Assembly: GCA_902499925.1 (NCBI GenBank)
Contig: GCA_902499925.1_4130.1
Reading direction: 5' to 3' (one strand)
Length of the DNA stretch: 64,000 bases
Origin: Escherichia coli
Lineage (GTDB): Bacteria; Pseudomonadota; Gammaproteobacteria; Enterobacterales; Enterobacteriaceae
Shown here: positions 41,332 to 43,771 of the stretch, one piece after another
How the letters are laid out: every line of letters starts with the position of its first letter
Numbering within the stretch: position 1 is the first letter of the stretch
Notes under the pieces: generated by a model
What the model was told of the DNA's origin: nothing
Databases searched by the model: none
What the model saw: only the letters and a program-made list of their open reading frames with translations
Translations under genes and position numbers: made by a program

Positions 41332-41703
41332 TTATAACATACGTTTTTTACGAATAGTATTGTGGATATTTTTTAAGTAGTTCACACCTTTACACAACCC
41401 ATAAAATACACCAGCACATACACCAAATGCAGGTATCATACATGCAAACATCGTTATCAATTCCCACATCTCCATGCCATCTTGATTCGGTCCAAGGTCA
41501 AAGATAACAACCAAAATCAAACCTGTGATACTTAGCATATAATATGCCATGAAGATAATAAAAGAAACAATACCAACATCAGAGCGAACTGAATTTAGCA
41601 TATTATATACTGGGGTTACACAGAAGTAATACAATAACCAAACCAAAGAGCCTAAACTAAACACAATAATAGTAATGATCGAAAATATTTCACGATAACT
41701 CAT
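41332..41703 (-). CDS. small multi-pass membrane protein, family member (123 aa)
   Basis: Hydrophobic helical segments; basic C-terminal tail; tandem paralogs. Confidence 0.6.
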   Translation of the reverse strand: MSYREIFSIITIIVFSLGSLVWLLYYFCVTPVYNMLNSVRSDVGIVSFIIFMAYYMLSITGLILVVIFDLGPNQDGMEMWELITMFACMIPAFGVCAGVFYGLCKGVNYLKNIHNTIRKKRML

Positions 41704-41704
41704 T

Positions 41705-42067
41705 TTAGTTCCTCTTACCTAAACGCTCATGGATTTCGGAAATCTTATTATACATCCATGCCAGCAACTCAACGGATGCACAGAGAATAACCACACACAG
41801 TGTTAGTGAACATACCATAATACCAAATGTTATAAAATTCGAACTCGATGTTAATAATGCAACCAGCATTAGAATAAAACCAAAATTGAATGCTGTACTC
41901 AACACAGTATATGCTGGACTATATCTCCTTTGTATTACATCATATATATTTGATAATGGTCGCTTATGGAAGTATTTTCCAATGCACACGAATGCATTCA
42001 ATGAGAAGATAAATGTATACGCCATTACCATTAATTGACCAATAAAAGATAATTCAATATTATTCAT
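41705..42067 (-). CDS. small multi-pass membrane protein, family member (120 aa)
   Basis: As above; C-terminus ...ERLGKRN. Confidence 0.6.
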   Translation of the reverse strand: MNNIELSFIGQLMVMAYTFIFSLNAFVCIGKYFHKRPLSNIYDVIQRRYSPAYTVLSTAFNFGFILMLVALLTSSSNFITFGIMVCSLTLCVVILCASVELLAWMYNKISEIHERLGKRN

Positions 42068-42068
42068 G

Positions 42069-42440
42069 TTATCCTCGTTTGCGGTATTTGATGCTTTGGT
42101 GCATTCTCTGAAAATGTGGAACTAATACATATTGTACGGTTTGCCAAATTACCATCAGATTATGGACAGCACCACCGAGTAGACCAAACACTACACAGAT
42201 AATTGCCAGTACTGGATCACCATCTACCATACCCCATTTGAATATATGTAAAATCCATACAGTGATAAGTAGTAATAAACTAATCCAATACGTAGTAAAA
42301 AATCCCGCATGTAATTCATAATCATCAGCAATTTCATCGTATACGGTTTCCAAGAAGGATACACAGAAGAACTTACCAATAATAACAATTGTACTAATAA
42401 ACAACATAGAAGTTAATATAATAAGTGCAATTTCCATCAC
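42069..42440 (-). CDS. small multi-pass membrane protein, family member (123 aa)
   Basis: As above. Confidence 0.6.
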   Translation of the reverse strand: MMEIALIILTSMLFISTIVIIGKFFCVSFLETVYDEIADDYELHAGFFTTYWISLLLLITVWILHIFKWGMVDGDPVLAIICVVFGLLGGAVHNLMVIWQTVQYVLVPHFQRMHQSIKYRKRG

Positions 42441-42751
42441 ATCCCTCGTTTACGCTTTTGATTGCGTCTAAATTCAGTTAGTCCACGGCTAATCGGTGGC
42501 ATCAGACTACATAAAAAAATAACAGTTGTTGGTAATAACATGAAGTCAATCATTGCTGTATTAACAGGTGGATCACATATCAAATAATACAAGCAAGTAA
42601 TACTAATAATGGTTGACCCAATAAAAGGAATACAAAATTCTTTTATCTGTTTTTCAACATAATCAAACATCTTCAGTACAAATAAAAATCCAACCCAACA
42701 CATAATAAAATAGAATGAATAAAGCGTGTAAATCAATGTTACGATATCCAT
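42437..42751 (-). CDS. small multi-pass membrane protein, family member (104 aa)
   Basis: As above; start overlaps upstream stop. Confidence 0.6.
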   Translation of the reverse strand: MDIVTLIYTLYSFYFIMCWVGFLFVLKMFDYVEKQIKEFCIPFIGSTIISITCLYYLICDPPVNTAMIDFMLLPTTVIFLCSLMPPISRGLTEFRRNQKRKRGM

Positions 42752-43089
42752 TAGTACCTCGCATCAGGAACTTTAGCACGTAATTTATGAACGACTGGGA
42801 ACAACAACAAACTTACATATGCAATAGTTGAACCCCAATAGAATACTAATATAATTGGTTCACCATTGGAACGGAACCCTCTACTAATCATTGAGTAGTG
42901 AATAATTGGCATAATCATCGCCATACCAAACCATGCGTGTAATTTTAATTGCAACAGGTGATCAGAGATGAATACTGAAATTGGTCGTTTGAAGAACCAC
43001 ATAAGAAAGTAGAATCCAGCACTAAGAATATAGTACATAATACTAACTTTCATATACCACGGCAGTAAGTGTAAAAAATATTCCATCAT
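42751..43089 (-). CDS. small multi-pass membrane protein, family member (112 aa)
   Basis: As above; C-terminus ...LRAKVPDARY. Confidence 0.6.
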   Translation of the reverse strand: MMEYFLHLLPWYMKVSIMYYILSAGFYFLMWFFKRPISVFISDHLLQLKLHAWFGMAMIMPIIHYSMISRGFRSNGEPIILVFYWGSTIAYVSLLLFPVVHKLRAKVPDARY

Positions 43090-43433
43090 TCCTCCGGTAT
43101 CTTGTTTCGAAGTTCAATCATAACACAACAAAGTTTAATGGTCAAGTAAAAAACTACACATATCATACCCAATGTACCATAAACTGCGGAGAATGCTGGC
43201 AGTACCTTTCCTGTGAGTGTTGCTACAATACATGCTATCAATGTTGATGCAAACAACGATTGATTAATGAAAGAATTCATAAAATCTTCACCATTACGCT
43301 TATAGAATTGTCGTTTAAAATACCATCCTAGAAACATAACTACCCAAAATGTTACATAACCTGTTAGAATAATCCCTGCAATTGAATGTGCAACAGAACT
43401 ACTCTTTAAAAACTCAAGATAAGATTCAAACAT
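43086..43433 (-). CDS. small multi-pass membrane protein, family member (115 aa)
   Basis: As above; C-terminus ...LRNKIPEE. Confidence 0.6.
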   Translation of the reverse strand: MFESYLEFLKSSSVAHSIAGIILTGYVTFWVVMFLGWYFKRQFYKRNGEDFMNSFINQSLFASTLIACIVATLTGKVLPAFSAVYGTLGMICVVFYLTIKLCCVMIELRNKIPEE

Positions 43434-43771
43434 TAGAAGTCCCCACGAATTTTTGCTCTACCATTAATGATGAGATTAAACAAGTATATCAGCACCCAAA
43501 TTAGTAATCCAAGGAATACAATATATTGTGATATTGAGTTCAACTGTGGATTAGCACAATAAATTAAGTGTGCGATAAGACCAACAATTGCAAACATACC
43601 TTGGATAATAGTGAAAAGAAGTAGTGAAATGTTTCCATCAGGATACAGTTTGAAAACGATTTTCTTTTTAAAATACCATAGTACTACAACTAGTGCATGA
43701 TAGAAGAAAAAACCAAACAGATAAATCAAAGTAATACTAAGCATTGTATCTGAATTAAAAAACTCAAGCAT
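43433..43771 (-). CDS. small multi-pass membrane protein, family member (112 aa)
   Basis: First gene of the cluster; C-terminus ...GRAKIRGDF. Confidence 0.6.
   Translation of the reverse strand: MLEFFNSDTMLSITLIYLFGFFFYHALVVVLWYFKKKIVFKLYPDGNISLLLFTIIQGMFAIVGLIAHLIYCANPQLNSISQYIVFLGLLIWVLIYLFNLIINGRAKIRGDF

Follow-up and report, generated by a model that had tools for sequence, protein, structure and literature searches.

A 64,000-nucleotide stretch of DNA deposited with the Escherichia coli assembly GCA_902499925.1 (contig GCA_902499925.1_4130.1; hereafter the window) encodes ten small proteins on its minus strand. We conclude, with a probability of about 0.9, that these make up one ancient, lineage-restricted family of three-helix inner-membrane proteins in an N-out, C-in orientation, whose genes form two tightly coupled operons. 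The source of the window is an Asteriusvirus jumbo coliphage of the 121Q/PBECO4 group, with 99% identity to Escherichia phage WPEC3 and 82-98% identity to approximately 40 other members of that group (jumbo coliphages and Salmonella phages), whose genomes are 310-386 kb. In all related records the family genes are labelled 'hypothetical protein' and rarely 'membrane protein'; they are present in public records but uncharacterised. Small early membrane proteins of virulent phages are already known, but an ancient array of seven paralogues in conserved order, next to another cluster that is expanding, is an uncommon form of them.

The ten proteins, their relatedness and predicted topology

An initial annotation of the window had placed seven consecutive genes in one cluster (cluster A, m1-m7) and three in another (cluster B, m8-m10), and all ten minus-strand open reading frames (ORFs) were borne out at those positions. 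From upstream to downstream, cluster A consists of m7 (43433-43771, 112 amino acids (aa), tail GRAKIRGDF, phrog_19454), m6 (43086-43433, 115 aa, tail LRNKIPEE, phrog_19046, cross-matching PHROGs 16874 and 19454), m5 (42751-43086/43089, 111-112 aa, tail LRAKVPDARY, phrog_27396), m4 (42437-42751, 104 aa, tail FRRNQKRKRGM, phrog_33258), m3 (42069-42437/42440, 122-123 aa, tail MHQSIKYRKRG, phrog_26405), m2 (41705-42067, 120 aa, tail IHERLGKRN, without a PHROG match) and m1 (41332-41703, 123 aa, tail IHNTIRKKRML, phrog_27618), the last gene of the unit. Cluster B consists of m10 (50626-50964, 112 aa, tail WRNKIPEK, phrog_19285), m9 (50275-50616, 113 aa, tail LRDNLPER, phrog_19285) and m8 (49929-50273, 114 aa, tail LRDKMPNR, with a weak match to phrog_19285). 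The longest-ORF starts are probably wrong for m8 (GTG 50297) and m9 (TTG 50622); ATG 50273 and ATG 50616 have a Shine-Dalgarno sequence in front and agree with the WPEC3 and 121Q annotations. With these ATG starts the overlap between m8 and m9 vanishes, and the members span 104-123 aa. A family profile run over the window found no members beyond the ten.

Pairwise identity among the window members is only 12-27%, and homology was therefore tested in a non-circular manner by leaving orthogroups out. Thirty-nine sequences, from the window and from phages 121Q, Turkey5 and A4, were sorted into eight orthogroups (seven of cluster A and one of cluster B), and a hidden Markov model built from seven of the eight recovered the left-out eighth at E values of about 1e-5 to 1e-10. 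Among the decoys, which were shuffled or reversed members plus all other ORFs of the four genomes, the best E values were about 0.1, apart from a single shuffled sequence at 0.002. Taken alone, m4 and m5 of the window give weak matches (E 0.007 and 0.01), and their A4 and Turkey5 orthologues are clear (7.6e-9, 2.5e-7). Since left-out orthogroups are recovered by profiles, the ten proteins constitute one family, and the proposal that small multi-pass membrane proteins with basic C-terminal tails form a single set of paralogues, encoded in operons, is confirmed by profile, topology and AlphaFold2 modelling.

Existing resources divide the family. Nine of the ten window proteins matched PHROGs 19285, 19046, 19454, 27396, 33258, 26405, 27618 and 16874, mostly at E values of 1e-46 to 1e-60; some proteins matched more than one PHROG, and the PHROG families cross-match each other. 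Annotated as 'unknown function' or 'membrane protein', these PHROG families hold the same proteins from other Asteriusvirus and RaK2-like genomes, but PHROGs keeps seven families apart where the profile tests described here merge them into one superfamily. Other searches were uninformative. Pfam-A hmmscan of the ten proteins, at E values up to 1, gave sub-threshold DUF matches only, and a PADLOC search of the family returned nothing useful, its single match being a 2TM effector at E 0.08. Foldseek searches against PDB and BFVD gave zero matches at E <= 0.001 and only generic helical matches, the best in BFVD being a GAP32 'putative membrane protein' at E 0.5.

It also should be considered that such ORFs could be non-functional, as chance hydrophobic reading frames or decaying duplicates in AT-rich DNA, and the low similarity within the window together with the breakage of one copy (m4) in 121Q might be taken in that sense. 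However, the ratio of nonsynonymous to synonymous substitution rates (dN/dS) against 121Q is 0.11-0.36 across nine members, similar to that of denV and other neighbours (m4, being split in 121Q, was omitted from this comparison), and the family genes are thus under purifying selection. A Shine-Dalgarno sequence is present for every family gene, over 40 GenBank phages from two genera have kept orthologues, as have several divergent lineages known from metagenomes, and the AlphaFold2 models are confident. Together these four observations refute the idea of non-functional ORFs, to which we assign a negligible chance.

Kyte-Doolittle analysis identified three hydrophobic helices in each of the ten proteins, the second being only weakly hydrophobic in m5. 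Of the three or four helices originally suggested, the count of three therefore stood, with support from AlphaFold2 models of m10 and m3, and the count of four did not. The two models, each computed from the family alignment, are concordant and have the same four-helix layout. For m10 the predicted local distance difference test score (pLDDT) was 86.6, with helices at residues 2-31, 35-41, 45-65 and 74-107; for m3, in which the three transmembrane (TM) segments are followed by a long C-terminal helix, pLDDT was 84.1, with helices at 2-23, 27-38, 40-65 and 75-121. Lysine and arginine residues of the ten proteins together are concentrated in loop 1 (28) and the C-terminal tail (45), as against 4 each at the N-terminus and in loop 2. 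By the positive-inside rule loop 1 and the tail would therefore be cytoplasmic, and the N-terminus and loop 2 periplasmic. The predicted topology is hence N-out, C-in, such that a short helix in the TM1-TM2 loop and the basic helical extension of TM3 would face the cytoplasm.

Topology and structure prediction combined with family alignment had been proposed as the check on this family, and they yielded three-helix membrane proteins that are mutually alignable by profile. All ten share the layout TM1-(Y/F)F(K/C/R)-loop-TM2-loop-TM3-[R/H]xx[I/L]-basic tail. The sole invariant alignment column, judged over 46-55 sequences, is the phenylalanine of the (Y/F)-F-(K/C/R) motif, where TM1 reaches the cytoplasm. 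Among orthologues, identity by region is 29% in TM3, 36% in TM2, 41% in loop 2, 47% in the tail, 50% in TM1 and 51% in loop 1. The P-(E/D)-type endings that first drew attention to the tails hold for m5, m6, m8, m9 and m10; the other five (m7, m4, m3, m2 and m1) lack P-(E/D) and carry a variant of the form [R/H]-x-x-[I/L/Q]-basic.

Promoters, translation signals and a possible role in lysis

Each cluster lies in a transcription unit headed by a hairpin-embedded sigma-70-type promoter cassette. The cassette on the minus strand at 44641-44678 (AAAGGGTTGACActagTCAGCCCTTTTTGCTATAAT) heads the unit that begins with a non-family AAA ATPase gene (43839-44612) and continues through m7 to m1; read from 44678 to 44641 it contains TTGACA-18-TATAAT with an extended -10, a 12/12 match to consensus, inside a GC-rich hairpin. 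A second promoter-like element with an internal hairpin (TTGACAgtactacactatggtagTACTAT; 43797-43829, minus strand) occupies the 67-nucleotide gap before m7. It is weaker (10/12 match) and has a similar counterpart at the same place in 121Q and Turkey5. Cluster B belongs to a unit headed by the cassette at 51701-51738 (minus strand; GGGTTGACTTCGGTCGGCCCTTTTTGCTATAAT), in which two non-family genes precede it (50974-51674), of 137 aa (51261-51674) and 91 aa (50974-51249). At the far end of the cluster A unit, a hairpin with a 12-bp stem (41300-41326) between m1 and the convergent RCC1-like gene at 40171-41295 is likely a bidirectional terminator ending the unit.

The cassette is a recurrent element. 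Its core, GGTTGACnnnnGTCARCC, was matched 20 times, counting both strands, at 11 sites of the window, where chance would predict 0.57, and the minus-strand hairpin cores end at 1429, 4698, 8713, 44672, 46649, 47370, 51732, 52414, 54493, 55273 and 58867. The full cassette is about 55 nucleotides long and comprises an A-run, a GGGTTGAC-TTCG-GTCAGCCC hairpin which holds the -35 hexamer, a T-run, TGCTATAAT, CATTTCATCAAC and a Shine-Dalgarno sequence; it is found as well in 121Q, Turkey5, A4, Klebsiella RaK2-like phages and metagenomic relatives. It has the appearance of a terminator merged with a strong sigma-70 promoter, and would mark probable early transcription units. A cassette precedes the ATPase gene in six relatives, namely 121Q, Turkey5, A4, the contig L014 and the more distant contigs L005 and L013, and none was seen inside the arrays of the relatives compared.

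The T4-type late motif TATAAATA was not found near either cluster. In the related phage CBB, RpoD-like promoters before short ORFs have been interpreted as marks of the early region (PMC5259590). Given the sigma-70 cassettes, the lack of the TATAAATA motif and the CBB precedent, we infer that both units would be transcribed early by the host sigma-70 RNA polymerase, with the family genes in promoter-distal positions.

Within the clusters the genes are closely packed. The abutting or overlapping arrangement noted at the outset was found in cluster A, where neighbours overlap by 1 or 4 nucleotides or lie 1 nucleotide apart; the intergenic gaps of cluster B are 1 and 9 nucleotides. The ribosome-binding site of the downstream gene sits within the last codons of the upstream gene, as in the endings IPEE* (ATA CCG GAG GAA TGA), LPER* (CTA CCG GAG CGT TGA) and KRKRGM* (...CGA GGG ATG TGA). 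The P-(E/D) ending thus coincides in part with the Shine-Dalgarno sequence of the next gene, as at the junction CCG GAG GAA TGA-ATG, which means that the tail motif is not purely a protein-level signal, and nucleotide-level constraint may account for some of the conservation of the P-E-E/R and K-R-G endings. It does not account for the basic nature of the tail, since m1 ends the operon with no such site after it and yet has the tail IRKKRML. From this arrangement we infer that the cluster genes are translated in a coupled manner.

The promoters bear directly on whether the family could function in lysis, as holins or antiholins, which the initial annotation had put forward beside exclusion and envelope remodelling, or as modulators of lysis timing. 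With 104-123 aa, three TM segments, a predicted N-out/C-in topology and a charged C-tail, the proteins have the layout of class I holins and resemble lambda S105 (about 105-125 aa, three TM segments, N-out/C-in, short charged cytoplasmic C-tail). The lysis system of these phages moreover appears incompletely known, since the RaK2 authors found neither a T holin nor an RI antiholin in that phage (PMC3622015) and the endolysin of the phage group has an N-terminal transmembrane domain (PMC5259590). Against this, the family genes have near-consensus sigma-70 promoters and no TATAAATA late motif, and early synthesis of a working holin would cause premature cell death. None of the ten proteins matched a Pfam holin family at E values up to 1, and the PHROGs concerned are of unknown function. 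No endolysin or spanin gene lies nearby, the neighbours being the ATPase gene, denV, endonuclease-like genes and small ORFs. Eight to twelve copies per genome are unlike any known lysis cassette (the window has ten where a class I holin has one), and the basic dual-start motif is absent, as the M-M starts of m3 and m5 have no lysine. In addition, a different gene, of 220 aa, is listed in the close relative fEgEco12 as matching the structure of the T4 holin T (6PX4) by HHpred. This sequence evidence speaks against a holin role, which we regard as improbable.

Distribution, mosaic divergence and possible roles

A profile search of 1.84 billion representative proteins returned only 26 family representatives, each of which belongs to one of the eight orthogroups or is a divergent relative. 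Searches by tblastn with m10 and m6 reached Asteriusvirus only, and a broader profile reached Klebsiella phage phiKp_21, a link confirmed by tblastn with the Klebsiella m5-like protein. The Klebsiella-phage contig L013 (348.6 kb) has an eight-member array after the ATPase gene, as do RaK2, K64-1, Muenster and KP13-7; L013 encodes the same protein as phiKp_21, and the family profile recognises all eight of its array members. In five divergent metagenomic lineages the ATPase gene is likewise followed by an array of small genes, with convergent RCC1-like genes next in four of the five; the profile confirmed family membership for two of these lineages (L005 and L008). By these searches the family is old and confined to Asteriusvirus and RaK2-like jumbo phages. 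That each genome has two clusters is indicated indirectly, by an exhaustive search in which no representative mapped elsewhere and by the counts of tblastn places per record. The publications on Asteriusvirus, RaK2, CBB and phAPEC6 do not discuss the family genes, and phAPEC6 gp012, gp013, gp015, gp016, gp017 and gp028 are absent from the main text of its virion-proteome paper.

Gene order is kept to a considerable degree. Using best-hit mapping, the order m7-m6-m5-m4-m3-m2-m1 is retained in 121Q, Turkey5, A4 and L005, the members of the last having 26-34% identity, and it is mostly retained in the Klebsiella phages. The best conserved member, m5, has 93% identity to 121Q and 35% to the Klebsiella phages. 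Since both genera have this order and these lineages in common, the paralogues diverged before the genera split and each has mostly been retained. Copy number is less constant: 121Q has an extra m7-like gene and an m4 broken into two ORFs, there is an additional m4-like gene in Turkey5, the Klebsiella phages have two m6-like genes and L008 has about four members in all. Cluster B has one copy in A4 and three in 121Q, Turkey5 and the window.

Between close relatives the family genes are markedly more divergent than their surroundings. Comparing Turkey5 and A4 with the window, family members have 27-51% identity, with one at 65%, whereas nearby genes (denV, the kinase-like gene, the 83-aa membrane-protein gene and the 58-aa gene) have 90-99%. 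Against 121Q, identity varies along the array from 63% to 93%, and the synonymous substitution rate (dS) is 0.2-1.5 in the members as opposed to about 0.1 in conserved neighbours. High dS with no rise in dN/dS points to old alleles exchanged by recombination, and not to relaxed or positive selection.

A constant order of seven paralogues might suggest that they are subunits of one hetero-oligomeric inner-membrane assembly, such as an early channel or platform, possibly together with the ATPase, which is a NrdC.10-like protein. The retention of the m7-to-m1 order as far as L005 and, for the most part, L013 would be in keeping with such an assembly. So would the start/stop overlaps and embedded ribosome-binding sites, which favour balanced co-translation, and so would the position of the array directly after the ATPase gene, behind the same promoter cassette, in every family-bearing lineage. 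However, the ATPase is widespread without the array (T4 NrdC.10 and the Xanthomonas phage XaC1 are examples), and members are gained, lost or broken, as in the split m4 of 121Q, the extra m7-like and m4-like copies and the reduced set of L008. The ATPase allele, with 96% identity to Turkey5, does not go together with the array alleles, which have 32-51%, and along the array identity to 121Q is uneven, which argues for recombination inside the unit and is a poor fit to co-adapted subunits. Cluster B, besides, is a separate unit of variable copy number. On balance we consider the multi-subunit account unlikely. Its more specific form, in which the seven paralogues, perhaps with cluster B, would form an early phage-built membrane machine perhaps driven by the NrdC.10-like ATPase, is distinctly unlikely; if true, it would represent a new kind of phage membrane complex and a first function for the widespread NrdC.10 family.

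We favour instead, tentatively and at well under even odds, superinfection exclusion or envelope takeover, in which each paralogue would have its own membrane target, as the likeliest single activity. The family proteins would be non-essential accessory factors acting at the host inner membrane in conflicts with the host or between phages. A conserved scaffold formed by TM1, the cytoplasmic loop and the tail would carry a more variable TM2-loop-TM3 half, and it is this half that would let different paralogues bind different inner-membrane targets. In this manner they might block the entry of superinfecting-phage DNA, or otherwise take over envelope functions, in a T4 Imm-like fashion. The early-type promoters, the predicted envelope site, the variable signal-peptide-like neighbours of cluster B and the variable copy number and divergence islands fit a conflict role. 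Copy-number differences and divergence islands in particular are compatible with an accessory, conflict-type function such as exclusion, without proving it.

Imm and Sp of T4 are early inner-membrane and periplasmic superinfection-exclusion proteins of T-even phages. The likeness that we favour is one of functional analogy, as the family too would be small membrane proteins encoded among the early, non-essential genes of a T4-related virulent myovirus, and its promoter sequence and predicted topology would be compatible with an Imm-type protein made early and located in the inner membrane. Differences are that the family has no homology detectable with Pfam and that Imm has two helices and is single-copy. 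The family profile also missed the ORFs of the T4 nrdC-rI region, although imm lies outside that region. In their setting the clusters resemble the hyperplastic regions of the T4 superfamily, where uncharacterised small ORFs, many of them predicted membrane proteins, are flanked by conserved genes (denV and the NrdC.10 homologue in the present case) and vary sharply among phages that are nearly the same elsewhere. They differ from these in consisting of one paralogous family with seven ordered lineages across two genera, and not of random ORFans.

Several observations weigh against exclusion or envelope takeover. The early timing is read from promoter sequence, and searches of Pfam, PADLOC, PDB and BFVD gave no homology to exclusion, defence or takeover proteins. 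Differences in conservation between protein regions are modest, and dN/dS gives no sign of positive selection, so that the divergence is not demonstrably adaptive. Seven lineages in near-constant order across genera are also more stable than typical arms-race genes, and could reflect one multi-subunit assembly instead.

The same apparently early expression, high-divergence islands and variable copy number would equally suit anti-defence factors directed at host effectors of abortive infection or defence that act on membranes, each paralogue dealing with a system of its own. Small membrane proteins and membrane pores are common among bacterial defence effectors, and T4 counters RexAB with its RII proteins, which are associated with the membrane. 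However, no similarity to a known anti-defence protein or defence effector was seen beyond the PADLOC match to a 2TM effector mentioned above, and ordered seven-gene arrays conserved across genera are rare for known anti-defence genes. An anti-defence role is accordingly doubtful in our view, as unlikely as a shared assembly.

Whichever activity applies, the family deserves attention on practical grounds. Asteriusvirus and RaK2-like jumbo phages are repeatedly isolated as therapy candidates against E. coli and Klebsiella, and more than 80% of their genes are of no known function. The family contributes 8-12 genes per genome that have been long retained, and in genomes which otherwise hardly differ it ranks among the parts that vary most. 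Should it govern superinfection, host range or resistance to defence systems, it would account for differences among closely related therapeutic phages and would also be a source of small proteins targeting inner-membrane functions. The immediate yield of this work is the uniting of seven PHROG families, the correction of two start codons and a cassette with which probable early units can be mapped.

Neighbouring genes

The ATPase gene which opens the cluster A unit (43839-44612, minus strand, 257 aa) is a NrdC.10 homologue: it matches phrog_1250 at E 1.3e-99, contains the Walker A sequence GKGGVGKT and has 40.7% identity to T4T nrdC.10 over 94% of the query. Homologues were found by tblastn in 1310 phage records, T4 nrdC.10 included; Pfam AAA matches are below threshold, and no functional literature on NrdC.10 was found. 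The family profile detected no member downstream of nrdC.10 among the ORFs of the T4 nrdC-rI region. T4 NrdC.7 was rejected as a relative, being a membrane protein of different layout (E 0.05, 3.7 bits). In the Xanthomonas jumbo phage XaC1 the ATPase gene is followed directly by RCC1-like genes, with no array between them. Since T4 and XaC1 carry the ATPase without the array, an obligatory ATPase-array module was rejected, and the array is an addition specific to Asteriusvirus and RaK2-like phages as opposed to an obligatory partner. The ATPase occurs as two alleles, with 96% identity to Turkey5 and 59% to 121Q and A4; this divergence is out of phase with that of the adjacent array, which indicates recombination between them.

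Further upstream, the minus-strand gene at 45031-46581 encodes 516 aa with about six tandem modules of approximately 80 aa containing VCIIDPVYGEFWQTP, and matches the PHROG endonuclease families 681 and 559. In 121Q and Turkey5 this gene is missing or has another in its place, which makes a mobile endonuclease-like gene probable. The gene at 47802-48173 (minus strand, 123 aa, phrog_4301) has a DAKPENFG motif resembling a kinase catalytic loop and is 95-99% conserved among relatives; 121Q and phAPEC6 have, besides, an annotated gp0.7-like protein kinase, which is far longer. A short way upstream of cluster B, two small minus-strand genes, at 51261-51674 (inside the cluster B unit) and 52102-52353, encode signal-peptide-like N-termini and have 40-67% identity to 121Q. 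These variable genes suggest a wider variable island directed at the envelope.

On the other side, a long run of plus-strand RCC1-like beta-propeller paralogues (18000-41295) converges on cluster A, and GC skew switches there. In the window a single RCC1-like gene (40171-41295) stands between m1 and a gp233-like gene (39443-40093), and in 121Q the gp233-like gene follows directly after m1. The gene at 39443-40093, at the equivalent array end, has no Pfam match.

Relatives carry further genes at their arrays. A 42-aa ORF (MKPEQWIIDDMRAMRKIENKSYEEQAYLDLLQWYVKVIQSKE in the Klebsiella contig), missing from the window, recurs within or at the head of the arrays of distant relatives, at 8156-8284 in L005, 8270-8398 in L008, 7816-7944 in L013, 1817-1945 in L016 and 1533-1661 in L017; no hydrophobic segment is predicted in the Klebsiella copy. 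A DUF1190 (YgiB-like) gene lies after the array in L012/L013 (10794-11399), L005 (10728-11294) and L014 (10384-10935), its hosts being Klebsiella phages, metagenomic relatives and a close relative of A4. The Klebsiella copy of this gene has an N-terminal hydrophobic segment, and in the Klebsiella phages a ClpP-like protease is encoded next after it.

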